Assembly (NCBI RefSeq): GCF_902801725.1
Contig: NZ_CADCJB010000013.1
Coordinates: forward strand, 11,302 to 43,301
Source: an uncultured Methanobrevibacter sp.
Lineage (GTDB): Archaea; Methanobacteriota; Methanobacteria; Methanobacteriales; Methanobacteriaceae
Direction: 5' to 3'
DNA: 32,000 nucleotides
The position numbers and the translations under genes were made by a program. This document shows positions 18,085-32,000 of the stretch, one piece after another. The stretch's first letter is position 1. Every line of letters starts with the position of its first letter. The notes under the pieces are model-generated. The model was given only the letters and a program-made list of their open reading frames with translations. It had not been told where the DNA came from and did no database searches.

Positions 18085-19440
18085 TTATCCTTCAAGTTCC
18101 TTGGCGGATATGGTCAGGTTTCCTCCAAAGTCAGGCATTGCAGCCACATGTGTGTGAACATAGCTTGCAAGTGTGTTTCTGCATATGAATCCATCCTGGT
18201 TGTTGTATGAGCCTTTTCCTCTTAGGATATCGAATGCCAGTTTGTGGTCGATGTTTGTGGAATCAACCAGTACCTTTGAATAATGGAACTCATGGCCATG
18301 GAATTTTTCACCTTTTTTGGATATGATGTTGTCCTCTTTGACTTCGGCAATGGTGTACTTCAGTGCCTGCACCCTATCTGTTAGAATTGCCTTGTAAGGA
18401 TATACATTTACAACTTTATCTTCGTGGATGGAATTCATAAGATACATTAAACCACCACATTCGGCAAAAATAGGCCTATCTTCCAGGTGGAAAGTATGGA
18501 TTTCTTGAAGCATTCTTTCATTTGCACTAAGCTCTTTTGAAAAGAGTTCGGGATATCCTCCTCCAATATACAATCCGTCTACATCGGGCAACCCTTCATC
18601 GTTTAATGGTGAAAAATATTCTATTTTAGCATTGTTTGCTTCCAATGATTCAATATTTTCCTTATAATAAAAATTGAACACTTCATCATATGCCACTCCG
18701 ATTTTAACTTTCTGCTTATTTAGTTTATTCCAGATGGGAACGATATTTGATGTAATCTTCGGAGCTTCTTTTGCAATTTCCACCAGTCTGTCCAAATCGA
18801 TTGAATTCTTTATTACTTCAGACCAGATGTCAATAAATTTGAGAGAATTTTCTTTTTCTCGAGCAGGAACAAGGCCTAAATGCCTTTCTTCAATTGATAT
18901 GGAATCATCACGAATAATCCCTCCGATAACTTCGGTTTTTGTTATTTCTTCAATTGATCTCTTTGTTTTTTCGTAGTGTGCCTTGTTTTTAACCTTGTTC
19001 AGGATAACTCCTGCAATATTTATTTCAGGATCCAATGCCTTAAAGCCCAAAACCAAAGCTGCGGCGCTTTTGACCAAACTTCTTGAGTTTATGATTAGGA
19101 TAACCGGTGCCTTTAGGGATTTTGCTATTGAAGCTGTACTTCCGATATCGTTGACAGAATCGATTCCCTCATAAAGTCCCCGAACACCTTCGATTACAGC
19201 AATGTCCTTTCCATCCATAGCTTTCAGATAGGAGTCTCTCACCTGTCCGGATTCCATAAAAAAAGAATCCAAGTTTCTGGATACATTACCGGTAGCTAAT
19301 GTATGGTAAGACGGGTCTATATAATCAGGTCCAACTTTAAATGGTTGAACATTGTATTTTTCACTTAAAGCTTTCATAATCCCGGTAGATATTGTGGTTT
19401 TTCCAACAGCACTACCAGTCCCTGCTAAAATAATTCTCAT
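18085..19440 (-). CDS. cbiA: Tetrapyrrole a,c-diamide synthase (cobyrinate or Ni-sirohydrochlorin a,c-diamide synthase)
   Basis: P-loop [14 protein letters not shown]-terminal GATase domain with the nucleophile box [11 protein letters not shown] and HGHEFHYS. The start is taken at ATG 19440 (MRIILAG...) rather than 19473. The CbiA and CfbB paralogues cannot be told apart by eye. Confidence 0.88.
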
Positions 19441-19538
19441 ATTTAGTAATTTGCATCTTCTTTTTATAAACAATTATTGTATAAATCATTTTATATAATA
19501 TTAAAAATAAAATTTAAACCATAATATATGGTGATTAA

Positions 19539-21362
19539 ATGAGAATTTTACTAATCCATTCTGATTATTTAAATTACAATGTAAAGAATAAAACACCTGT
19601 TGCCGAAGAAATCGACGAGGCTAAAATGCAAGGTGCATTCGACGATTCTTTAGTGGTATTTACAAGTGTTGAAAAAGATGATGAAAATAATCCGGAAGGC
19701 ATCGTCAAAAATTTAGTCAGCGAAGTTATAAAAACCAATGAACAAGTTAATGCGGAAAATATTGTTTTATATCCATATGCTCACTTATCTTCTTCATTAG
19801 GTTCTCCAAAAGTTGCTATTCAAATTTTAAAGGATACTGAAGAAGCTTTGCTCGCTGAAAATTTAAATGTTAAAAGAGTACCTTTCGGATGGTATAAGGC
19901 CTTTGAGATTTCCTGTAAAGGCCACCCATTGAGCGAACTTTCAAGAACTATCACTGCCGATGTTGAAGATGAAAAAGTTGAAAGAAAACCTTCCAAGTGG
20001 CAAATTCTTGAAGGAGACAAAATTACTCAAATTGAAGACTTTAACTTTGAAAACAGGGCTTTCAAACAGCTTGTTGATTATGAGCTCGGACAAGGCGCAT
20101 CCGATGAAGGAGAACCTCCTCACGTAAAACTGATGAGGGAAAAGGAAATCTGCGATTATGAACCAGCATCCGATGTCGGAAACCTCAGATGGTATCCTAA
20201 AGGAAAATTAATCAGGGATTTGCTTTCAGATTATGTTTATGATTTGACTGTAGATCGTGGAGCAATGCCTGTTGAAACCCCAATTTTCTATGACCTGGAC
20301 AATCAAGCTATTTACGAACATGCCTACAAATTCGGTGAAAGACAGTACAGAACCGACACCAAAAAGAATTTGATGCTTAGATTTGCGGCTTGTTTCGGTG
20401 CATTCAGATTAATGTCCGATTCATATTTGACATGGAAAAATTTCCCTGCCAAAATTTTCGAATTAACCAGATACAGTTTCCGTTTTGAGAAAAAAGGTGA
20501 AGTTGTTGGTCTTAAAAGATTAAGAGCATTCACTATGCCTGATTGTCATTCATTCTGTTGTGATGTACCTTCATCTTTAGAAGAATTTTCTCAACAAACT
20601 GATATGTGTATGCAAACAGGTAAGGATTTGGACCTTGACTTTGAAGTAATTTTCAGAGCAACCCAAGACTTCTTTGAAGAAAATGAGGAATGGATGTATG
20701 AAATTGCAAGTAAATTCAATAAACCAATTCTTTTAGAAATCCTGCCTGAAAGACACCACTACTGGGTATGTAAAATCGATTTGGCAAACATTGACGCATT
20801 AGGCCGTCCGATTGAAAACCCAACCGTACAGATAGATGTTGAAAGTGGTAAAAGATTCGACATTACCTATTTGGGTGAAGACGGCAAACAGCATAATCCT
20901 ACAATCCTGCACACTTCACCAACCGGAAGTATTGAAAGGGTTTTATGTGCAATGCTTGAAAAAACCGCAATTGAAATTAATGAAAGATCTCCAATGTTGC
21001 CAACATGGTTAAGCCCAATTCAAGCAAGAATCTTGACTATTGGAGAAGCCCATAAAGAATTTGCAGATGAACTCTATGCAAAAATCAATGCTTCAAACAT
21101 TCGTGTAGACGTTGACGACAGGGATGAAAGCGTTGGTAAAAAAATCAGAAACGCATCTAAAGAATGGATTCCGTACATATTCGTTGTTGGTGATAAAGAA
21201 ATGGAAACCGGCAAGTTCCAAGTGACCGTACGTGAAACCGGACAAAAAGTTGACATGACAGTCGACGAATTGATAGATGAAATAAATGCCAAATGTGAAG
21301 GAAAACCTTTCAGAAAATTGCCTTTGCCTAAGGACATTTCAAGAAGGATTAACTTCCAATAA
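19539..21362 (+). CDS. thrS: Threonine--tRNA ligase, archaeal type with the N-terminal archaea-specific editing domain
   Basis: N-terminal [10 protein letters not shown]... editing-domain-like region, class II core ([33 protein letters not shown]) and a C-terminal anticodon-binding domain. SD GGTGAT. Confidence 0.93.
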
Positions 21363-22725: not shown

Positions 22726-23007
22726 ATGGGATTTTGTAATTCATGTGGAAGACCAATCGTAAGGGAAGATTACGGTACTAACAAGGATGGTAGTCCAAAC
22801 GATGAATTTTGTATAGACTGTTATCAGAATGGTGAATATACGGAGCCAGATATTACTCTTAATGAAATGATTGTAAGAAAAACCAAAGAAATGATGGAAA
22901 AAAATCCTAGATTGGCGGAAACACAGGCAACAGGTATTACTGCGATGTTCATTCCTGGCTTGAAAAGATGGAACCCTGAGTTTCAGGATGATTACAAGAC
23001 TCTTTAA
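22726..23007 (+). CDS. Putative zinc-ribbon domain protein
   Basis: CNSCGRP...(GT.KDGS)...FCIDCYQNGEYTEPDITLNEMI matches the putative zinc ribbon layout (CxxC...CxxC). SD AAGGAG upstream. Confidence 0.65.
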   Translation: MGFCNSCGRPIVREDYGTNKDGSPNDEFCIDCYQNGEYTEPDITLNEMIVRKTKEMMEKNPRLAETQATGITAMFIPGLKRWNPEFQDDYKTL

Positions 23008-23858
23008 TTGCCACCATTTAAAATAAATTCTTTAACTTTATTGGCGATGTATTCATCGTGGCTTCTATTTGTTTTTATGTTATAGATTTCTTCTTGTAAA
23101 TCATTATATTTATCAACTAAATCATTATATTCAAGACGTAGGGAATCGTAATCTTTTTCTAAATCTTCATTAAGCTCATAAATCTCTGCGTAACTGGTTT
23201 TTGTACTGAGATTTTCATGCTTTAGCTGATCATATTTGGAAGTGATCTTATCATAGCTGCTCTTGATGTTTTGATGCTCTTCTTTTAAGTTGGAACATTT
23301 GCTTTTCAGGTTTTTGTTTTCTTCTTTAATGCTTGAATACTTGGTTTTGAGATTCTCATTTTCGGTTTTCATATTGACGAATTTGGTTTTGAGATTTTCA
23401 TTTTCTATAATTAATTTTGAATGTTTGTCTCTGATGTTTTCATTCTCTTTTTTCAAATTGTCAATATTGTTTTCGTTTAAGGTATTGTATTTGTTTTCAA
23501 TTTCAGTTATGGCATCATTTTTTGCAGCAATTTCAGCTTTTAACTCTTCAATTTCTTTTTTATATTCTAAAGTAGATGGATTAACGTTATTTTCAAGTTG
23601 ATCTCTCAATTCTTTCACTTCCTGTACATACAAATAATTAGCTATTTTTAAAGATTCACTTTCTTCCTCTCTACTTTTAAAGGTTTCAATTTCGCTTTGG
23701 GGTATGATTAATACTTCTTCCTGGTTATTGTAAATGTCTTCATTTTTAGGAACGGTGATTTGAATTTGTTCTGTTGTGTATTTCTTTCTCTCACCGTTTT
23801 TCAAAGTTCTATGATATTCCCTTGAATATTTTTTTACAATACCTTTTCCTACTTTCAT
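23004..23858 (-). CDS. Hypothetical coiled-coil protein with a basic N-terminus and 14-aa tandem repeats
   Basis: Long E/K/N-rich heptad-like sequence. The N-terminal 40 aa are basic (MKVGKGIVKKYSREYHRTLKNGERKKY). No recognisable enzymatic motif. Confidence 0.6.
   Translation of the reverse strand: MKVGKGIVKKYSREYHRTLKNGERKKYTTEQIQITVPKNEDIYNNQEEVLIIPQSEIETFKSREEESESLKIANYLYVQEVKELRDQLENNVNPSTLEYKKEIEELKAEIAAKNDAITEIENKYNTLNENNIDNLKKENENIRDKHSKLIIENENLKTKFVNMKTENENLKTKYSSIKEENKNLKSKCSNLKEEHQNIKSSYDKITSKYDQLKHENLSTKTSYAEIYELNEDLEKDYDSLRLEYNDLVDKYNDLQEEIYNIKTNRSHDEYIANKVKEFILNGGN
23238..23447 (-). repeat. Five tandem 42-nt (14-aa) in-frame repeats inside the coiled-coil gene
   Basis: The units are ENENIRDKHSKLII, ENENLKTKFVNMKT, ENENLKTKYSSIKE, ENKNLKSKCSNLKE and EHQNIKSSYDKITS. 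At DNA level, TTGGTTTTGAGATT(C/T)TCATTTTC occurs at 23341-23363 and 23383-23405. Confidence 0.75.
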
Positions 23859-23954: not shown

Positions 23955-23996
23955 AGTAATACTTTTTTTCGATATTTGTGAAATAAGTAATACTTT
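23955..23996 (+). promoter_or_regulatory. Two exact copies of palindromic motif AGTAATACT(TT) upstream of the CobN-like operon; candidate operator overlapping the promoter
   Basis: AGTAATACTTT at 23955-23965 and 23986-23996, 31 bp apart. The core AGTA-A-TACT is a 4-1-4 inverted repeat. The second copy runs directly into the TATA-like TTTAAATATA (23994-24003), about 48 nt before the start codon. Confidence 0.4.
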
Positions 23997-24050
23997 AAAT
24001 ATATTTATTAATATTAAAAGTAATAATTAAAAATAGTTTTTATATTAACA

Positions 24051-27000
24051 GTGGGTAATATTATGTTTTGTTTAAAAAATAAAAAGTATTTTTGCGTATT
24101 AATTTTATTAATAACGATTTTTATCATTCCTTATTCATTTGCATTGGATAATTCCACTTCAGATGATTTGCCTATTTCAAGTGATGATAATGCATTATTA
24201 AATGATAATATTGAAGAATCGGTTGGCAACGATAATCTGATGAGTGTAGATTCATCCAAATCTCAAAATATTACTTTATTTATTGTAAGCGACAATCCAG
24301 GGACTAATATTTTGGATAAAGCTAGCAGTGAATTAAGCAGTTCCCAAAATTTAAGTAATATTAATTTGGTTGTTCGCAGCGGTGAACAGATAAAGGAAAT
24401 GAGTGATTTTGAATTAATAAGTCTTCTTTCTTCCAGCGACGGATTTGTCGGTGAATGGATAAGTAGTGATGTAGATTCAGTTTTAACAAATGTTTTGGGT
24501 AAATATCCTGAATTGTCAAATAAGGAATTGTTTCTTATATTGGAACCGCCTTCAGGCAAAATGAACTCCGGTTCCAGTTCAATAGGTTTAATCAGAAACA
24601 ATACAATAAATTATCAAAAGATTTTCGCATCATTTTCAGACCAGGAATTGATTTCATATTTTGAAAACACAAAAAGAGGCAAATACTATACTGATGTTTA
24701 TAATTACATTGACAGGAGCGCTACAAAATTTGACCCACTGTTCAATCAGATGGTTCTTTATAAGGATATAAACGATAAAGAAAATCTTAAAAATCAAATA
24801 TTATACGCATTAAACTTTTTAGGCACATCTTTTGAAGTCAATGCACCGACATTTACAGGAGTAAAACAGTATGGAATTTATAGGGACAGATGGTATTCCC
24901 TTGAAGAGTATATTGCAGAATTTTTCAATCCGAATAATTCCAGAACTGTCGGAATATTGGAAAGTACAATGTATGTTGAATCTCAGCAATTGCATCCATG
25001 CTACAACATTATCGAATCATTGGAATCAAGAGGATATAATGTAATCCCTATCTTTGCTGCAGGGGGGTCTGCTGAACAATTGAAAGTGATGATTGAATCC
25101 TGGACCAGTGCAAAGACTGACTATTCCGGATTTTTAAGAAATTCATCCAATTATGATATTTATGTGGATGCAATAGTGTCCATGGTTGCTTATGGTGTTG
25201 GGGGTCAGAATTTTTCCAATGCTACAAACTTCTTTGAACAGGTGGGCGTGCCTGTATTCAGGGCAGTACACTCTGATTATGTTTCCAATGAGATGTGGGA
25301 ATTGGGATCTACCGGTCTTACAACAGAAAAAAGTGACAAATGGTGGCACATTACCATTGCCGAAACTCAGGGAATAATTGATGCAACATTTGTTGGCGGT
25401 CAATCAAAGTACATTTCCAGCAGGACAGGAGCTCAGATTACTACCTACATACCTCACGCCAGAAACATTGATTTGCTGGCTGACAGAATAGATTCCTGGG
25501 TTGATTTAAAATACACTTCAAATATCGATAAGCTAATCTCAATAATCTATTACAATTATCCTCCTGGAAAACAGAATATCGGTTCAAGTTACCTGGATAC
25601 AATAACCAGTATTTACAACATGCTGATAACTTTAAAAAATGCCGGATATGATGTTGGCGAGTTGCCAGCTAATGTTTCTGAACTTGAAGATTTAATGCTT
25701 AAGTGCGGTATTAATGTAGCTACCTGGGCACCGGGAGAGCTTGAAAAATTGGCTAACCAGTCAGGCGTTACATTACTGCCGGTTAAAGAATATACCAAAT
25801 GGTTCAATTCATTGGATGAAATTGTTAAAATACAGGTCACTGAAGGGCCTGTTGCTTACATAGGCGAGCTTTCAAGACGTTCAGTTGAGCTAAACTACAC
25901 AGTAACAATCGCAGATACAATTGATGATTGGTACAATCAGGTTGTTGCCCTGCTTCCAGAGGAAAATGCCGATAAGTCTAAAAGCGTTTTAAACAATATC
26001 GTATCAAGCTTAAAAAATTATACAAAGACTCAGGATGCAAAATATTATAAGCTGTTCTTAAGGTACTTTGAAGAATTCAAAAAGTTAAATATTTCCGGAT
26101 TAAACGGTTGGGGTAATGCTCCGGGCAATGTAATGGTTGTTAATAGAAACGGAGTTGATTATTTTGTCATACCTGGCTTAACTTATGGAAATGTATTTAT
26201 CGCCCCTGAACCTCAAAGGGGATGGGAATCTGACATTGAAAACTTATATCACTGTACTGCAGTAGCTCCAACCCATCAGTATCTGGCGGCTTACTACTAT
26301 ATGCAGACCAAATACCACAATGCAATGATTTTCGTCGGAAGGCACGCTACACATGAATGGCTTCCTGGAAAGGAAATTTTACTATCATCCACTGATTACG
26401 GATCAGTTGTGGTAGGTGATGTCCCGCAACTGTACTTCTATATTGCAGATGGTTTGGCTGAAGCTATTCAGGCAAAAAGAAGAGGTTTTGCAGTTATCAT
26501 TTCACATTTGACTTCTCCAATGTCTTACACCCATTTATATGGTAACTTGACCGTTGCGGCTAGTCTGGTTAAGGAATATTCTGCTAATCCAAATGTTCGT
26601 ACTGCTAGTGAATTGCGCAATCTAATTATAAAAAATGATTACTACACTAATTTGGGCCTTTCAAAAGGAGAAGTAATGAATATCTCTGATACCTTACTTG
26701 TTGAGAAGGTAAATAAGTTTTTAGTGGAGATGCAGTCTACCTTGTATCCATTGGGGCTTCATGCATTGGGTCAGTCCTGGAGTGAACAGGACTTGGCAAG
26801 CACAGTTTCAGCAATGTTGTCTTATGATTATGTTCTTGATAATAATCAGGGTGTTTTAAATTTATTCAGTGAACTTTCAAGCTACTATTATTCAAAAGGA
26901 TATAGCCAGCTATCCGCATTTGAAAGGGAATTTATTTTAAACAAATCCTATGATATTGTAAAGGCACTGATTTACTGGGATGTAGACACGGTCAATAGCC

Positions 27001-29114
27001 TGTTAATAAGTCAAAATCAAAAATTCAACAATCCTACATTTTTTGCCTGCCTTGAATTGGCTAAAAAGTATATAGGCCTTATCAATTTCAGTGTTTCAAA
27101 CGAATTGGATGCAATGCTCGACGGATTAAACGGCAGATATGTTCCAGTTGGTGAAGGTGGAGAACTTGTAATAAAACCTGCAATTCTTCCGACAGGTAAA
27201 AACATGTTCCAGGACCAATCATCTGAGCTTCCGACAATGGATGCATGGGAATATGCGAAAAATTTGGCTTTATTAACACTTGCTGATTTAAATGACACAA
27301 CAGAGAAGATTATCATGGGTATCTGGTGTGTAGAAACCGCAAGAGATGACGGAGCGTTGGTTTCAACCGTTCTTTACTTGTTGGGTATGAAACCTGTCTG
27401 GACAGATTCATCAAGTGCGGGTTATGACGATGAAGGAAATCCGACAGGTAAAAAAGTGGGTGCAATGCCTGAAGTTATTAAACTGGATGATTTGACCCGT
27501 CCTGCCGGTTGGGCCAAAAAAAGAATTGACGTGACTGTAATAACTAGTGGTTTATTCAGGGATTTATACTCATCTCAATCAATTCTTATGGATAATGCTT
27601 ACCGTGTTGCGCTTGCAAGGTCCTATCTGACATTGATTAATAATAATGCATTAATGAACTCTAAAAATGGTAATCAATTGCGCGAGGCTCTTGAAGGTGT
27701 AATGCAAAGTATCAGCTATTATGGTATTTATAATGAGCCATTGGATTCCAATTATGTGGCACAGCACTGGATTGAAGATACTTTATTCTATTTAAGTCAG
27801 GGCTATAATGCAACTTATGCAGGCGAATGTGCAATAACAAGAATATTTGCACCTCCAAATGGTGATTATGGTGCCGGAATATCAAAATTAGTATCAATGT
27901 CATGGACATGGAACGATACTAGTGAACTTGCAGACTTTTACCTTGGAAGAATGGGTAACATGTATTCAAAAAATTATTGGGGAGATACAAACCCATTGGT
28001 ATTCCTGAGGGCTCTGTCAAACTCAGACACAATTGTGGCCAGTCGTAATACCAACCAATACGGTGTACTCGACAACGACGACTTCTTTGATTATTGGGGA
28101 GGTTTGTCAATGACTGTAGAAAATATTTCCGGAAAAGCTCCTAAATTCAATGTATTGATGTATTCAGATAAAAACAATGCATACATTTCATCTTTGGAGG
28201 AAGTAATGTATAAGGAAATCGCCGCAAGATATGATAATCCTGACTGGATTAAAGGAATGATGAAAGAGGGTTACAGCGGTGCTCGTTACATGTCAAATAA
28301 GTTTGTAAGTAATTTGCATGGATGGCAGGTAACAAGACCATCAGCCGTATCAAATGACTTGTGGAATAGAATTTACAATACTTATTACAATGATAAATAC
28401 AATATTGGAGTTAAAGATTGGCTAATGAGTGGAAACAATGCATATTCACTTATTTCCATGAGTGGAACAATGCTTACAACAATCCATGATGGTTATTGGA
28501 AGGCAGATAAGGCTACAATTAGCGATATAGCTAATACATGGGCTCAAGCAACTGTTCAAAATGGTGTGGCCTGTTGTGATTGCAGTTGCGGTAATATTGC
28601 AATGATGCAATGGGCTGTCCAATATGTCAATCCGGATATTTTAGCACAACTGCTTCCTAAATTATATGAAGCAACCAAAAATCCGGTATTTAAGAATAAT
28701 ACTCAATCAACTCAGCCGCCTGAAACTGATATAAAAGATAATCCGAAGGAAGCTTCAACTCAAAATCCTGTAAAGGGATCAACTTCATCTTCTACTATTA
28801 AAACAAATTCCAGCTCCACAACCACTCAAACTACTGCTCAAAGCGGAAGCAATGCTCAGGGTGATGCCTTTTCAAATGTTGGTGCTGGAAGTGAATCAGT
28901 TCAGGCTGGAAGTTCATCTGCAGAGGGAGCAGATGTCAAGAAAGCAGTTGAAATAAATCCAATATCCTCTCAATCAGCAAGTGAAGTAGGATTGTCAATA
29001 GTAGCTGTATTGGCTATTTTATGCTTGATTATGGTTGTGGCTGTTGGATACTTTAGAAATAATGATAATAAAGATAAAGTTCAAGATTTAGATAAGCTAT
29101 TTAATGAAAGATAG
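24051..29114 (+). CDS. Exported, membrane-anchored CobN/Mg-chelatase-family (class I chelatase large-subunit-like) protein
   Basis: CobN/ChlH signatures GRHATHEWLPGKE (26337-26375) and LDGLNGRYVPVGEGGELVIKPAILPTGKNMF (27117-27209), plus QYGVLDNDDFFDYWGG. N-terminal signal peptide KNKKYFCVLILLITIFIIPYSFA|LD. Ser/Thr-rich stalk (about 28695-28985). C-terminal TM VGLSIVAVLAILCLIMVVAVGYF followed by a basic tail. An alternative start is ATG 24063. Confidence 0.9.
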   Translation: MGNIMFCLKNKKYFCVLILLITIFIIPYSFALDNSTSDDLPISSDDNALLNDNIEESVGNDNLMSVDSSKSQNITLFIVSDNPGTNILDKASSELSSSQNLSNINLVVRSGEQIKEMSDFELISLLSSSDGFVGEWISSDVDSVLTNVLGKYPELSNKELFLILEPPSGKMNSGSSSIGLIRNNTINYQKIFASFSDQELISYFENTKRGKYYTDVYNYIDRSATKFDPLFNQMVLYKDINDKENLKNQILYALNFLGTSFEVNAPTFTGVKQYGIYRDRWYSLEEYIAEFFNPNNSRTVGILESTMYVESQQLHPCYNIIESLESRGYNVIPIFAAGGSAEQLKVMIESWTSAKTDYSGFLRNSSNYDIYVDAIVSMVAYGVGGQNFSNATNFFEQVGVPVFRAVHSDYVSNEMWELGSTGLTTEKSDKWWHITIAETQGIIDATFVGGQSKYISSRTGAQITTYIPHARNIDLLADRIDSWVDLKYTSNIDKLISIIYYNYPPGKQNIGSSYLDTITSIYNMLITLKNAGYDVGELPANVSELEDLMLKCGINVATWAPGELEKLANQSGVTLLPVKEYTKWFNSLDEIVKIQVTEGPVAYIGELSRRSVELNYTVTIADTIDDWYNQVVALLPEENADKSKSVLNNIVSSLKNYTKTQDAKYYKLFLRYFEEFKKLNISGLNGWGNAPGNVMVVNRNGVDYFVIPGLTYGNVFIAPEPQRGWESDIENLYHCTAVAPTHQYLAAYYYMQTKYHNAMIFVGRHATHEWLPGKEILLSSTDYGSVVVGDVPQLYFYIADGLAEAIQAKRRGFAVIISHLTSPMSYTHLYGNLTVAASLVKEYSANPNVRTASELRNLIIKNDYYTNLGLSKGEVMNISDTLLVEKVNKFLVEMQSTLYPLGLHALGQSWSEQDLASTVSAMLSYDYVLDNNQGVLNLFSELSSYYYSKGYSQLSAFEREFILNKSYDIVKALIYWDVDTVNSLLISQNQKFNNPTFFACLELAKKYIGLINFSVSNELDAMLDGLNGRYVPVGEGGELVIKPAILPTGKNMFQDQSSELPTMDAWEYAKNLALLTLADLNDTTEKIIMGIWCVETARDDGALVSTVLYLLGMKPVWTDSSSAGYDDEGNPTGKKVGAMPEVIKLDDLTRPAGWAKKRIDVTVITSGLFRDLYSSQSILMDNAYRVALARSYLTLINNNALMNSKNGNQLREALEGVMQSISYYGIYNEPLDSNYVAQHWIEDTLFYLSQGYNATYAGECAITRIFAPPNGDYGAGISKLVSMSWTWNDTSELADFYLGRMGNMYSKNYWGDTNPLVFLRALSNSDTIVASRNTNQYGVLDNDDFFDYWGGLSMTVENISGKAPKFNVLMYSDKNNAYISSLEEVMYKEIAARYDNPDWIKGMMKEGYSGARYMSNKFVSNLHGWQVTRPSAVSNDLWNRIYNTYYNDKYNIGVKDWLMSGNNAYSLISMSGTMLTTIHDGYWKADKATISDIANTWAQATVQNGVACCDCSCGNIAMMQWAVQYVNPDILAQLLPKLYEATKNPVFKNNTQSTQPPETDIKDNPKEASTQNPVKGSTSSSTIKTNSSSTTTQTTAQSGSNAQGDAFSNVGAGSESVQAGSSSAEGADVKKAVEINPISSQSASEVGLSIVAVLAILCLIMVVAVGYFRNNDNKDKVQDLDKLFNER

Positions 29115-29125
29115 TAGGTGTTTTA

Positions 29126-29833
29126 ATGGATGCAATTAATATTTTATGGCAACTTGGGATATTGTCAGCGGTTTTAATTTTTGGAGTCAAATTGGGCCTT
29201 GCTACAGGCCTTGCGAACATGTCAAAAAAGTATTTGGCATTGGTGTCAATAGGATATGGTGGGGGAGTTTTAGTACTCACAGAAATTTCTTCATTCTTCA
29301 CAGATCAAATCACTGATTTGATTTATACTTATAACTTTGAATTTTTCCTGATTATGGCGATAATCATGATTTTAGCGGGAATATTTACAATAAGGGAGTA
29401 TAAGGTATTTGAAAAAAATACCACTGCAGCCACTTGTATGGCGGTCGTTGCTCCATGTCCTTGTTGTTTTGGTTCTATTATTGTGAGTATAATGCTTGTA
29501 GCGCCTACTGTAGGTTTAGGGTTGATGAATTTAAGTGTAATCGTAGCTTTGGCGTTAGTTTTAACAATTGTTGTAACTTATTACGCATCAAATTACCTCG
29601 TAAAATTCATTAATAAGCCTTATCCAATAGTATTGGGCAATTTCATGTTCTTTTTGGGAATTTACTTCCTATTGTCTGCATTGTTCTTGCCGAATATTAC
29701 TGCAATGATTCAAAATCCAATGGAAGCAATATCAATATCATCTCCATATTCTCTGATTGGAGCTTTAGTATTGGTGCTTGTTATAGTGGCTATCGGCGGA
29801 ATAATCTCTAGGAGAAACAGTAATTTTAATTAG
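29126..29833 (+). CDS. Polytopic membrane protein (DUF2162-like predicted transporter; HmuT-like position) with an intramembrane CPCC motif
   Basis: About 7 TM helices. C-x6-CPCC (TCMAVVAPCPCCFGS, 29435-29467) sits within a hydrophobic segment. SD AGGTG (29116-29120), 11 nt after the CobN-like stop. The family assignment is from memory. Confidence 0.75.
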   Translation: MDAINILWQLGILSAVLIFGVKLGLATGLANMSKKYLALVSIGYGGGVLVLTEISSFFTDQITDLIYTYNFEFFLIMAIIMILAGIFTIREYKVFEKNTTAATCMAVVAPCPCCFGSIIVSIMLVAPTVGLGLMNLSVIVALALVLTIVVTYYASNYLVKFINKPYPIVLGNFMFFLGIYFLLSALFLPNITAMIQNPMEAISISSPYSLIGALVLVLVIVAIGGIISRRNSNFN

Positions 29834-29841
29834 GTGATTTA

Positions 29842-30486
29842 ATGGTAACTACAATTCCTGGAAGTGAAATATTAACATCAACATTGAATATGATTTCACA
29901 AAGTCTGCAGATTCCTGTAATCATATTTCTGGTGGTTTTTGCAGTCTTTGCAGTACTTGCAATCGGAGGATTGATTTCTGAGTATACTTCAAGAAAGAAA
30001 ATCACTCCCGAGCTGATTGAAGAATTGATTTATTCAATATCAAATGCAACTTCTTTGGATGAAATAAAAAACGTTATTAAAAACGCTAAAATTTATGAAT
30101 CTCAAAAAGTTGTTTTAATTAAGATTTTACGTGCAAATTCCCTAACTCCAGAGTCAAGACATGCACTTGCTAAGAAACTGGTTGAATTTGAAGAAAATAA
30201 ATTTGCAAAGTCAATCGAAAGAACCGATGTTGTCACGCGTATAGGACCTACATTGGGTTTGATGGGTACATTAATTCCTATGGGTCCGGGTCTTGCTGCA
30301 TTGGGAGCTGGTGATGTAAATACGTTGGCTAATGCTATTATTGTTGCTTTTGATACAACTGTTGTAGGTATTGGTGCTGGAGCTGTAGCTTATTTTGTAT
30401 CTAAAGTAAGGCGCAGATGGTATGAAGAGTACTTGTCCAATTTGGATGCGCTTGCAGATGCATTGCTTGATAAGTTAAATCAATAA
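29842..30486 (+). CDS. MotA/TolQ/ExbB-family proton-channel protein
   Basis: Three-TM layout with a long loop after TM1. Signature RIGPTLGLMGTLIPMGPGL and TM3 AFDTTVVGIGAGAVAYF. A perfect SD AGGTGAT (29832-29838) overlaps the upstream stop. Confidence 0.85.
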   Translation: MVTTIPGSEILTSTLNMISQSLQIPVIIFLVVFAVFAVLAIGGLISEYTSRKKITPELIEELIYSISNATSLDEIKNVIKNAKIYESQKVVLIKILRANSLTPESRHALAKKLVEFEENKFAKSIERTDVVTRIGPTLGLMGTLIPMGPGLAALGAGDVNTLANAIIVAFDTTVVGIGAGAVAYFVSKVRRRWYEEYLSNLDALADALLDKLNQ

Positions 30487-30492
30487 GAGGTT

Positions 30493-30831
30493 TTGGTGAT
30501 GGTTCGAGATAAATCTAAAAAACGATTTTCAGAAGGTGAAGAGGACCCGATGGCTGGAACTTCGAATCTTGTAGATGCAATGCTTGTTATTGCAGTTGGC
30601 TTATTGATTTTCGTTGTTATAAGTTGGAATATGCAGAGTGTGGTTTTCCAGGATAATCAAAATCCGCAGAAAGCTATTGAGCAGTCTTCACCTGATGTAA
30701 CGGAAGTCAGTGAAGGACAGACATTGAATGAAACTCCGGAATCTTCAAACAGTTCTGGTCAGGGTTATATGGAAATGGGTAAAGTCTATAAAGATCCTTC
30801 AACGGGCAAGTTGATTATGGTGGAAGGTTAA
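30493..30831 (+). CDS. Bitopic ExbD/TolR-like protein (DUF2149-like; HmuV-like position)
   Basis: Single TM NLVDAMLVIAVGLLIFVVI resembles the ExbD/TolR helix (..IDVMLVLLIIF..), with Asp retained at 30574-30576. Short polar extracytoplasmic tail. The start is ambiguous (TTG 30493 / GTG 30496 / ATG 30499), after AAGAGG (30485-30490). Confidence 0.7.
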   Translation: MVMVRDKSKKRFSEGEEDPMAGTSNLVDAMLVIAVGLLIFVVISWNMQSVVFQDNQNPQKAIEQSSPDVTEVSEGQTLNETPESSNSSGQGYMEMGKVYKDPSTGKLIMVEG

Positions 30832-30833
30832 TA

Positions 30834-30986
30834 AGTAATACTTTTTACTTTTGGATTTGCTCCATTAGTATTACTTTTTTCCTCTTTTTTTTAAATAATT
30901 ATTACTTTTTTTTAAAAAAACTTTACTTTAATATATAGTTTTCTCTTTTTTAGAGCAAATAAAAAGTTTTATAAGAGTATTACTTT
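30834..30986 (+). promoter_or_regulatory. Cluster of the same AGTA-W-TACT(TTT) motif between the operon end and the adhesin-like gene
   Basis: AGTAATACTTT at 30834-30844; AGTATTACTTT at 30867-30877 and 30976-30986; degenerate ATTATTACTTT at 30898-30908. Spacings are 33, 31 and 78 bp. The last copy runs into the TATA-like TTTATAAT (30984-30991), about 85 nt upstream of ATG 31075. Confidence 0.4.
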
Positions 30987-31074: not shown

Positions 31075-32000
31075 ATGAAAAGTAAGAGTTTAATATTTTC
31101 AATATTTTTGGTTTTCATAATTGTTATTAGTGTCAGCGCCATATCCGCTCAGGATGTGGACGATGCTATCTCTACAACTGACGATGAAACAGTAATTGGG
31201 GATTCTGAACAAGTTTCAGGTACTGTTTCAGGAGATGTGGATGTTACAACTGAAAATCCATGGACTACAAGTGGAGAATTAAGTTATGATATTCCTGCCG
31301 ATGCTAAGACAATTAAAAGTGCTGATGTTTATGTGAATGTTTATAGTGGTAGTGCAAAAAATACTCATGGTGCAAATGCAAATGTAAGTATTTCAACCGC
31401 TAATGGAAATGAAAGTTACTCTGAATCTTTATGGACTGAAGACGGTTCAGCTGACGGTACTGTTTACAAAGTAAATAATCATACTACCAAATGCTATTCC
31501 GATTTCATGGTTCATTATGATGTAACCAGTTTAGTTCAAGGATTAAATGGAAGTAATTTAAAGATTAAAGTCGATACATTTAAGATGGAAAATAAGTCAT
31601 TTGACGGTAGGATAAAACTAATCGGATTAGTTTTAGCTTATGATGATGGAGATGATGATGTAATCAATTATTTAATTGATGATAATCAAATTTGGACTAA
31701 TTCCAATATAACTATTCCTTTTAACACTTTATCATTTAATAATGTGTTTGAATCAAATCTGATTAATATTGCTCTTTCATCAGTTGATGGAACTTATAAA
31801 TTCAATAATGAATTTTTAACAGATTCCAAACATAAATCCGGTAATTATTATCAATATAATGAATGGAATGTAACTAATTATTTCAAAAACGGTCAAAACA
31901 ATGAATTGAATGTAATTCCTGGTCAAGGTTCCTACGGATCTTCTTATAAAAGTGTTCTTTCAGTATTGACCGGAAAATCTGTTATAAATTCAGCTGCTAT
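31075..32000 (+). CDS. Secreted adhesin-like protein, N-terminal part (continues beyond the window; not in the ORF track because no stop is reached)
   Basis: I translated from ATG 31075 to the window end and found no stop. Signal peptide MKSKSLIFSIFLVFIIVISVSAISAQD. The beta-rich domain (ADVYVNVYSGSAKN..., FDGRIKLIGLVLAYDDG) resembles, from memory, the DUF3344-type N-terminal domain of Methanobrevibacter adhesin-like proteins. Confidence 0.7.
   Translation, partial: MKSKSLIFSIFLVFIIVISVSAISAQDVDDAISTTDDETVIGDSEQVSGTVSGDVDVTTENPWTTSGELSYDIPADAKTIKSADVYVNVYSGSAKNTHGANANVSISTANGNESYSESLWTEDGSADGTVYKVNNHTTKCYSDFMVHYDVTSLVQGLNGSNLKIKVDTFKMENKSFDGRIKLIGLVLAYDDGDDDVINYLIDDNQIWTNSNITIPFNTLSFNNVFESNLINIALSSVDGTYKFNNEFLTDSKHKSGNYYQYNEWNVTNYFKNGQNNELNVIPGQGSYGSSYKSVLSVLTGKSVINSAA

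Follow-up and report, generated by a model that had tools for sequence, protein, structure and literature searches.

A four-gene operon of Methanobrevibacter as a possible proton-driven machine for metal extraction and uptake at the cell surface

The operon and its likeness to the Hmu system

Within a 32,000-nucleotide stretch of DNA from an uncultured Methanobrevibacter (the window, hereafter), four adjacent genes, which we call ORF1 to ORF4, occupy positions 24051 to 30831. We are inclined, though only somewhat, to think that this operon encodes a cell-surface machine for metal extraction and uptake that is driven by the proton-motive force (pmf), and by analogy it appears to be the archaeal counterpart of the Hmu system with which Bacteroides strips iron from haem. 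The genes all lie on the forward strand: ORF1 at 24051-29114 (1687 amino acids (aa), with an alternative start ATG at 24063), ORF2 at 29126-29833 (235 aa), ORF3 at 29842-30486 (214 aa) and ORF4 at 30493-30831 (112 aa). The gaps between them are 11, 8 and 6 nucleotides (nt), the last becoming 12 nt if ORF4 is read from the ATG at 30499, which is the more probable start because homologues begin MVR. Before each downstream gene stands a Shine-Dalgarno-like element, purine-rich and complementary to the 3' end of 16S rRNA (AGGTG at 29116-29120 for ORF2, AGGTGAT at 29832-29838 for ORF3 and AAGAGG at 30485-30490 for ORF4). An earlier note on this DNA had described the four same-strand frames, their tight spacing and these elements, all of which we found at the places it gave. 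It had also named the families that a profile search should find, and Pfam returned exactly those four: CobN-Mg_chel for ORF1 (E = 7e-227), DUF2162 for ORF2 (3.6e-65), MotA_ExbB for ORF3 (2.2e-10) and DUF2149 for ORF4 (6e-23).

The order of a large CobN-like gene, a gene for a polytopic protein of about 233 aa, a MotA/ExbB gene and a DUF2149 gene is common to this operon and the hmu locus. In Bacteroides thetaiotaomicron (locus L088, from gut metagenome contigs, on which we also checked the residue numbering of HmuS) that locus comprises HmuY, a TonB-dependent receptor, HmuS, HmuT, HmuU and HmuV; HmuS carries CobN-Mg_chel, HmuT (233 aa) has no Pfam family, HmuU belongs to MotA_ExbB and HmuV to DUF2149 (1e-33). 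ORF3 is 33% identical to HmuU over its full length (E = 1e-36), ORF4 is 35% identical to HmuV over the transmembrane (TM) region (E = 3e-8), and ORF1 shares 30% identity with HmuS in the C-terminal 500 aa and 21-23% elsewhere. Among sequences of solved structures in the PDB, HmuS (9d26) is the best match of ORF1, at 310 bits against 270 for ChlH and 270 for CobN. The protein in the T slot is another matter, since ORF2 shares with HmuT its position and size only: BLASTP gave an E of 2.3, and local hhalign with a 15-sequence DUF2162 alignment gave a probability of 0.7%, in a comparison where the low diversity of the HmuT alignment could let very remote homology escape. The parallel with hmuS-T-U-V that the earlier note had drawn thus stands for the gene order, for HmuS as the closest structure, for ORF3 with HmuU and for ORF4 and HmuV as DUF2149 proteins, and falls for ORF2.

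Bacteroides fragilis reportedly needs FeoAB and the CobN-like proteins BtuS1 and BtuS2 for haem-iron assimilation, according to the title of Rocha et al. 2019; where the HmuS literature cites that work, it does so for no more than a proposal of de-chelation, and it names BtuS2 as the homologue of HmuS. HmuS of B. thetaiotaomicron is a membrane-bound, ATP-independent haem de-chelatase with a structure from cryo-electron microscopy and defined key residues, and is anchored by N- and C-terminal helices (PMC12583661), and its P. gingivalis counterpart is an inner-membrane-anchored protein on the periplasmic side (PMC13227078). Export of the CobN-like subunit, which the earlier note had counted as a departure from Hmu, is therefore no difference at all. 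ORF1 and HmuS are alike in having an N-terminal signal or anchor, a Cys-containing motif ahead of the stalk and, towards the C-terminal end, a TM helix, and neither system has an AAA+ partner. They differ in that the archaeal locus lacks the HmuY hemophore, the TonB-dependent receptor and an outer membrane, has DUF2162 in the T slot, a long Ser/Thr-rich stalk on ORF1, a different regulator site and a DUF3344 neighbour, and likely handles a different metal. The HmuS papers describe the archaeal homologues as unexplained and state that no Hmu homologues are encoded in CobN operons, and the one from 2025 states that complete hmu operons are lacking in archaea.

The four-gene arrangement is conserved far beyond chance. 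Our counts cover the 80 most similar of the 551 loci that a scan of genomes for the DUF2149 motif located; each of the 80 is labelled as Methanobrevibacter or is mis-binned. The earlier note had proposed a gene-neighbourhood comparison across Methanobacteriales, and in it the order ORF1-2-3-4 proved to be kept in 47 of these best 80 of 551 loci, among them a paralogous one with an identity of about 54%, and in Methanobacterium (L163). Some genomes carry two or three loci, and the proteins of the operon are 89-97% identical to those on contigs of Methanobrevibacter metagenome-assembled genomes (MAGs). Protein searches with ORF2 and with the DUF2149 profile were saturated by rumen Methanobrevibacter, and wider diversity was reached through the Methanobacterium DUF2162, cluster look-ups and tblastn against plasmids. 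Beyond Methanobrevibacter, the complete module occurs in the Methanobacterium locus and on three other archaeal contigs (L165, L167 and L168). An exported CobN-like protein with MotA and DUF2149 is encoded in a member of the Peptococcaceae (L162), Rubeoparvulum (L175), a gammaproteobacterium (L174) and Runella (L170), and on the bacterial contig L176 these three are accompanied by DUF2162.

The chelatase-like protein, the stator-like pair and the candidate permease

ORF1 belongs to the CobN/ChlH/HmuS superfamily, as judged by its Pfam and PDB matches. It scores 756 bits against CobN-Mg_chel (PF02514; cutoff 24.5), with most of the domain covered, but lies under the cutoff of all nine NCBIfam CobN/BchH equivalogs, the best being NF004645 at 737.7 bits against a required 1619. 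Like the large subunits of CobNST and ChlHID/BchHID, it has the fold domains of the superfamily, a GxH motif and a GG(D/E)...P..LPTG(K/R)N motif, and like CobN it has an acidic DxDD motif. The two signatures singled out in the earlier note, VGRHATHEWLPGK (26337-26375, aa 763-775) and LDGLNGRYVPVGEGGELVIKPAILPTGKNMF (27117-27209, aa 1023-1053), do align with conserved CobN/ChlH/HmuS motifs. The motifs of ORF1 are GRHATH at about aa 765-770, DNDDFFDY at about aa 1343-1350 and CCDCSC at aa 1508-1513 (28572-28589). The active-site His that is conserved throughout the superfamily, His538 in the F-G-T-H-G of HmuS, is kept as V-G-R-H-A-T-H and is invariant in more than 30 archaeal relatives, and at the second HmuS site, to which it belongs, His1209 and Glu1212 are both replaced by Asp. 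In place of the site-1 haem ligand His254 (in His-Gly-Arg), every relative from Methanobrevibacter and Methanobacterium has Tyr (A-Y-G-V); this Tyr, DNDDFFDY and CCDCSC do not vary among the orthologues of Methanobrevibacter, nor in the 54% paralogue or in the orthologue from Methanobacterium. No Met aligns with the other site-1 haem ligand of HmuS, Met79, in a region where the alignment is weak. The Met-rich insertion of HmuS domain IV (21 Met in residues 773-892) is absent from ORF1, whose richest 120-aa stretch holds eight and lies elsewhere.

A second archaeal clade carries GTHG, DNDD and CCHHTC instead. In its longer form the Cys-rich motif reads GVACCDCSCGN, invariant in the ORF1 clade, GVTCCHHTC in the homologues of the second clade (L165, L168 and L167) and PSCSGFVCDN in HmuS. 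Placed where the chelatase body gives way to the stalk, it looks like a metal or Fe-S site, and might be connected with the unexplained reductant requirement of HmuS.

The layout of ORF1 is that predicted for a secreted surface protein with a C-terminal anchor. Its N-terminus (aa 1-31) is signal-like, with a basic stretch, a hydrophobic core (hydropathy 2.64) and a cleavage-like site between SFA and LD. Towards the C-terminal end there follow a low-complexity stalk rich in Ser, Thr and Gln (about aa 1535-1640), a TM helix (aa 1646-1664, 28986-29042 on the forward strand; hydropathy 3.07 over 19 aa) and a basic, charged tail that is predicted to be cytoplasmic. The exported, membrane-tethered form suggested in the earlier note is thus borne out by hydropathy. 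A signal-like N-terminus and a C-terminal helix are found in every motor-linked CobN-like protein: HmuS and the homologues from Runella, the gammaproteobacterium, the Peptococcaceae and the archaeal clades. Both features are missing from canonical CobN of Haloferax and of Comamonas, which have ATPase/VWA neighbours (N-terminal hydropathy 0.43 and 1.68; C-terminal 0.35-0.36, no helix). Marinobacter CobN also begins with a signal-like stretch, which we set aside as proof of a periplasmic, B12-linked enzyme since the start codon may be mis-annotated.

A rough neighbour-joining analysis of 12 sequences recovers the ORF1 clade with 100% support and sets it apart both from the canonical CobN pair of Haloferax and Comamonas (100%) and from HmuS. 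The phylogeny that the earlier note had proposed thus gives ORF1 a clade of its own, and the deep nodes, at 46-62% support and with ChlH left out of the tree, do not settle whether this clade belongs on the HmuS or the CobN side. ORF1 is neither a member of the HmuS family as Nath et al. 2025 define it, whose insertion and residues it lacks, nor a canonical CobN, given its scores under every equivalog cutoff, its predicted export and the lack of an AAA+/VWA partner among the ORFs scanned.

CobNST and ChlHID/BchHID are cytoplasmic and soluble, and are driven by AAA+/VWA subunits that are encoded nearby. ORF1, in contrast, appears to be exported and anchored, and is paired with a proton-channel stator. 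Such AAA+/VWA genes are present beside the cobN genes of Comamonas and Haloferax, and we found none next to any S-U-V locus examined. The window was scanned with Pfam (all ORFs of at least 90 aa upstream of 20000) and NCBIfam (four of the five ORFs between 19.5 and 24 kb); among the ORFs so scanned, that is, all these but the one at 19539-21362, there is no AAA+ (ChlI/ChlD or CobS/CobT) or VWA chelatase subunit, no TonB and no outer-membrane protein. Within this scope the earlier note was right that the window holds no AAA+ partner, and right also about the absence of TonB and of outer-membrane parts (HmuY/HmuR), which a cell that has no outer membrane is expected to lack.

What the operon encodes instead is a stator-like pair. 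ORF3 is a proton-channel subunit of the MotA/TolQ/ExbB family and an HmuU homologue (Pfam 40.8 bits, cutoff 22.9). It has three TM helices, with the Thr/Gly motifs of TM2 and TM3 that are found in ExbB and TolQ (GLMGTLIPMG and AFDTTVVGIGAG), and finds a weak TolQ match in the PDB. ORF4 is a bitopic DUF2149 protein (81.4 bits, cutoff 27.1) and an HmuV homologue. Like ExbD and TolR it has one N-terminal TM helix with an Asp of the essential type in a D-x-M-L-V context (D28, in NLVDAMLV), and this residue, together with N25, M30, G96 and D101, is invariant in 75 diverse members of the family. D28 aligns with the D-V-M-L-V motif of ExbD/TolR. Unlike these proteins, ORF4 lacks their periplasmic domain and does not match Pfam ExbD/TolR (PF02472) at E<=0.01; its external part is short, about 60 residues, and ends in a conserved G-x-VY-x-DP-x-TGK. 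When the DUF2149 profile was compared with the PDB, TM segments of TolR/ExbD (DVMLVL) came second to fourth with E of about 1-2; the top match was a cytochrome bd subunit (E 0.18), and none of these matches is significant. A further difference from ExbB-ExbD-TonB and TolQ-TolR is that ORF3 and ORF4 have neither a TonB or TolA partner nor an outer membrane. We regard the pair as a pmf motor that would be coupled to the chelatase.

ORF2, the candidate permease, is a polytopic DUF2162 protein (220 bits, cutoff 34.4), for which AlphaFold2 gives a model of eight helices with a predicted local distance difference test score of 75. The CPCC motif mentioned in the earlier note lies within the membrane at aa 111-114 (29456-29467); among 64 family members C113 is invariant, and C111, P112 and C114 are each conserved in at least 90%. 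Links of DUF2162 to other Pfam families were at the level of noise, such as MerT in 5 of the 64 members (E 0.017), and we found no mention of the family in the searchable literature.

Metal-gene neighbourhoods, the proposed mechanism and competing explanations

The main argument that the module supplies metal comes from what surrounds it in other genera and from what occupies its T slot. In Methanobacterium (L163), the module lies between FmdE-x-CbiM-x and CbiM-PDGLE-CbiQ, the second CbiM being above the NCBIfam cutoff for 'cobalt transporter CbiM'; the S-(T)-U-V module thus adjoins components of ECF transporters of the CbiMNQO/NikMNQO type, which suggests the same physiological job. A related genome (L161) has the same block and lacks the CobN-like gene. 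In these two genomes of Methanobacterium type (L163 1-2970, L161 3767-8466) an uncharacterised gene set centred on CbiM precedes the module: it encodes an FmdE-domain protein of about 1000 aa, then a small membrane protein, then CbiM, and lastly a 157-aa protein of no family. On the archaeal contig L165, the module is divergent from feoA-feoA-feoB, with a nicotianamine-synthase-family gene nearby.

On plasmid pRUNSL01 of Runella slithyformis (L170, 2516-10550) hypB and hypF are followed by genes for a TonB receptor, a 208-aa permease, MotA, DUF2149 and the CobN-like protein, in this order, and then by hypC, hypD and hypE. The permease gives weak NicO and nico matches and carries HAFEADH, which is the HX4DH signature of NiCoT/UreH-type Ni/Co permeases; in the existing annotation it is only a 'urease accessory protein', and the large gene only 'CobN'. 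This S-U-V set beside a TonB receptor and an HX4DH permease recalls NiCoT/UreH/HupE permeases and TonB-dependent nickel uptake. From its setting in the hyp cluster we read the context as one of nickel supply for hydrogenase, and by analogy the set resembles the Hmu core in a version for acquiring nickel. In the gammaproteobacterial MAG (L174, 4268-14163), genes for an exported, anchored CobN-like protein, MotA and DUF2149 head an anaerobic-type cbi operon with, among others, CobO, CbiX and CbiC. The head of a cbi operon is the usual position of cobalt importers. Because the operon also encodes the class II chelatase CbiX, we would argue that its CobN-like protein is not the biosynthetic cobalt chelatase. 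In Oscillospiraceae, MotA-DUF2149 occurs with CobW, an ATP-binding cassette (ABC) system and surface proteins that include a Shr-like haem-interacting domain. Across all these settings S, U and V are constant, and the polytopic protein in the T slot varies between HmuT, DUF2162, a NiCoT-like permease and, in the Peptococcaceae, a 230-aa protein, which is the pattern expected if T sets the cargo. Comparisons of the hhalign type between HmuT and the Peptococcaceae protein, the Runella permease and a protein from L173 were negative, as for ORF2.

In the mechanism that we propose, ORF1 would be secreted and tethered by its C-terminal helix and long Ser/Thr-rich stalk, and its class I chelatase body would bind an external metal complex and release the metal or hand it on. 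The reaction would be the reverse of that of CobN and ChlH, as it is for HmuS with haem, and the ligand attacked could be a tetrapyrrole or corrinoid or another organic chelate. Since there is no ATP outside the cell, the AAA+ motor would be replaced by ORF3/ORF4 as a proton-driven stator of the ExbB/ExbD kind, which, as the module occurs without an outer membrane or TonB in archaea and Firmicutes, has to work at the cytoplasmic membrane. Protons that pass through the DUF2149 helix with its Asp would perform mechanical work on ORF1, on ORF2 or on both, and ORF2 would carry the freed ion across the membrane via its intramembrane Cys-Pro-Cys-Cys site. The energy would thus come from the stator, unlike that of known Ni/Co uptake systems, which is ATP or simple secondary transport. 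We infer the direction of the reaction, the coupling of the motor, the role of the permease and the existence of a regulator, and likewise the metal, which in Methanobacteriales would most likely be nickel or cobalt, with iron possible.

Several observations weigh against this mechanism. The window holds no Ni, Co or Fe transporter gene, so that the metal assignment is drawn from other genera. Neither by fold nor by sequence does any known transporter match DUF2162 significantly; the ORF2 model finds no significant fold in the PDB, and the family is unrelated in sequence to Ni/Co permeases. The permease role is therefore argued from topology, operon position and the Cys motif. The signal-peptide and TM assignments derive solely from hydropathy. 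Because the HmuS-specific residues and the Met-rich insertion are missing from ORF1, haem de-chelation is not simply transferable to it, and its second motif resembles that of the metal-inserting CobN (DNDD against DSDD, CobN having DSDDYYQF). Lastly, the motor is also found by itself. DUF2162-MotA-DUF2149 without an adjacent CobN-like gene occurs in 19 of the 80 loci, among housekeeping genes, and also in L161 (of Methanobacterium type) and L166; MotA-DUF2149 stands alone in a further 14 of the 80 or lies beside adhesin-like beta-helix or Ig proteins. Such CobN-less loci mean that the motor may serve other surface proteins too. Among the loci L045-L053 there are MotA-DUF2149 sets without an adjacent CobN-like gene, and some motor sets adjoin NosD/beta-helix adhesin-like proteins; in L049 MotA-DUF2149 comes after adhesin-like beta-helix/Ig proteins, and next to come are DUF3344 proteins and a CobN-like gene.

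Other readings of the operon can be set against these observations. If ORF1 were a true HmuS-type de-chelatase, Fe(II) would be stripped from host or dietary haem, which is present in the gut or rumen habitat, and iron or porphyrin would be imported via DUF2162. The closeness of HmuS among solved structures, most marked over the C-terminal domain, where HmuS reaches 99.6 bits and CobN 57, the shared anchoring, the U and V homologues, the one archaeal homologous operon (L165) divergent to feoA-feoA-feoB and the reported need of B. fragilis for FeoAB and the BtuS proteins would all suit this, but we think it unlikely, given that the missing insertion and the exchanges at His254, His1209 and Glu1212 are consistent across the clade, that HmuT is not conserved and that the Methanobacterium orthologue lies among CbiM/CbiQ genes, not iron genes. 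Much the same doubt attaches to the salvage of corrinoids or nickel tetrapyrroles, in which cobalt or nickel would be removed from or exchanged in scavenged corrinoids, F430 or their precursors to meet the very large need of methanogenesis for Co and Ni. The CobN-like second active-site motif of ORF1 speaks for it, and a rough tree puts the ORF1 clade sister to Marinobacter CobN, whose cluster comprises a TonB receptor, a cobalamin-binding protein, an ABC transporter and CobO/CobQ, although the deep nodes of that tree carry no more than the support given above. The gammaproteobacterial S-U-V set inside a cbi operon and the CbiM/CbiQ neighbours in Methanobacterium are in keeping with such salvage, whereas the hydrogenase-nickel context in Runella, with its NiCoT-like permease for free ions, suggests an ionic cargo and not a macrocycle. 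The F430-synthesis gene cfbB lies 4.6 kb upstream in the window but is parted from the operon by unrelated genes and is on the other strand, and our analysis offers nothing in favour of tetrapyrrole binding by ORF1. The haem or corrinoid-type substrate that the earlier note had put forward finds no support in the sequence, ORF1 having neither the haem ligands of HmuS nor its Met-rich insertion, and the neighbourhoods favour a supply of metal in general (Ni, Co or Fe).

The MotA/DUF2149 pair, with DUF2162, might rather be a general engine for the deployment, conformation or turnover of surface proteins, with the CobN-like protein as one client among several and no role in metal transport. Motor sets beside beta-helix/NosD, Ig-like, SLH and DUF3344 proteins without an adjacent CobN-like gene are what one would then expect, and the operon's own neighbour is a DUF3344 surface protein. 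We nevertheless consider this quite improbable: conservation of the catalytic His and of the acidic motifs in ORF1 is strict, metal-uptake neighbourhoods recur, the enzymology of HmuS has been demonstrated, and the CobN-less loci may act with CobN-like genes elsewhere, several genomes having two or three loci. An ordinary cytoplasmic CobN for cobalamin or F430 synthesis, which is how databases annotate ORF1, with three unrelated small genes behind it, is scarcely credible. Methanogens use the class II chelatases CbiX and CfbA, ORF1 is under every CobN/BchH equivalog cutoff in spite of its strong CobN-Mg_chel domain, and it has a signal peptide, stalk and C-terminal TM helix by hydropathy; among the ORFs scanned nearby there is no AAA+/VWA partner, unlike in canonical loci, and the three small genes are conserved with ORF1 across phyla, even though a list of B12 genes for Methanothermobacter gives homologues under the name CobN (PMC3087415).

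The surface machine for metal extraction that we prefer for this operon may also be one instance of something wider. We suggest, as a tentative idea on which we would not insist, that an exported CobN/HmuS-like protein with an HmuU/HmuV stator makes up a cross-domain class of pmf-driven chelatase machines acting outside the cell, in which a 5:2-type ion motor takes the place of AAA+ subunits and an exchangeable permease (HmuT, DUF2162 or NiCoT-like) sets Fe, Ni or Co as cargo. Were this so, the 'CobN' paralogues of methanogens would be surface metal-extraction enzymes that feed the Ni/Co demand of methanogenesis, and in Bacteroides HmuU/V would power HmuS/T at the inner membrane and not the TonB-dependent haem receptor. 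The occurrence of the same core in cells without an outer membrane indeed makes it probable that HmuU and HmuV act on HmuS and HmuT.

The kind of system is known from Bacteroidota and its genes are individually annotated. In the searchable literature we found no description of the archaeal S-DUF2162-U-V unit, of its differing active site and candidate operator, or of the Ni/Co/Fe settings in which it lies, in agreement with the earlier note's remark that no archaeal version had been characterised. To our knowledge, the CobN homologues of methanogens have had no accepted role since the class II chelatases CbiX and CfbA were shown to make B12 and F430. Methanothermobacter thermautotrophicus has three CobN paralogues, MTH237, MTH514 and MTH1363. 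The present candidates, namely the Hmu S, U and V core in Methanobacteriales with its own permease, regulator site and surface partner, give these unexplained 'CobN' genes a testable role. Methanobrevibacter is the main methane producer of rumen and gut, and its growth depends on nickel and cobalt; a surface-exposed uptake machine of this organism is a conceivable target for an inhibitor or a vaccine. Such genes are listed as B12 CobN in a methanogen genome paper (PMC3087415).

A candidate operator, the DUF3344 neighbour and the surroundings of the operon

Upstream of ORF1, the palindrome AGTAATACT occurs twice on the forward strand (23955-23963 and 23986-23994, 31 bp apart), its second copy abutting a putative TATA element, TTTAAATATA, at 23995-24004, and it may be where a repressor of the operon binds. 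Three further copies on the same strand, at 30834, 30867 and 30976, lie in the spacer between ORF4 and the DUF3344 gene (30834-30984) among T-rich, terminator-like runs, and are a candidate operator of that gene. The pattern AGTAWTACT(TT) has five matches in the window, against 0.28 expected, all in the two spacers that flank the operon, and none of 100 shuffles reached five. In related loci (L001-L065), palindrome pairs, 30 of them with a spacing of 32 bp, precede DUF3344 genes and also CobN-containing operons, whichever of the two paralogue classes these belong to, and are absent at the related loci without CobN (DUF2162-MotA-DUF2149 sets). From this distribution AGTAWTACT is probably an operator through which a candidate regulator switches the operon and the DUF3344 gene together.

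The DUF3344 gene (31075-32000, forward strand, cut by the end of the window; Pfam 8e-27) encodes a secreted surface protein. Of 36 four-gene loci, 30 have a DUF3344 ORF no more than 600 nt away, and the same palindrome precedes these genes. The neighbouring DUF3344 proteins often have Ig-like domains, as at L023 10349-12955, L042 241-3339 and L049 10784-15067. We consider the protein a probable co-regulated accessory and, as speculation, would compare it loosely to HmuY as a partner in ligand capture.

The window also encodes methanogenesis marker 12, Fae-Hps and CfbB. The last, a Ni-sirohydrochlorin a,c-diamide synthase of coenzyme F430 synthesis, is at 18085-19473 on the reverse strand (637.6 bits, cutoff 560); between it and the operon are a 607-aa ORF (19539-21362), Fae-Hps and two small genes. 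Rfam searches at gathering thresholds found no riboswitch in the window or adjoining the modules. The sole hit, a cobalamin riboswitch at the Peptococcaceae locus (L162, 1652-1838, reverse strand, 137.5 bits), stands before a small gene and an aldehyde:ferredoxin oxidoreductase gene; it precedes this unrelated reverse-strand operon and is not placed to control MotA-DUF2149-CobN. Divergent to the Methanobrevibacter operon, at 23004-23858 on the reverse strand, is an ORF for a 284-aa protein with repeated heptad-like units of the type ENENLKTK, a coiled coil with weak SMC-like matches.

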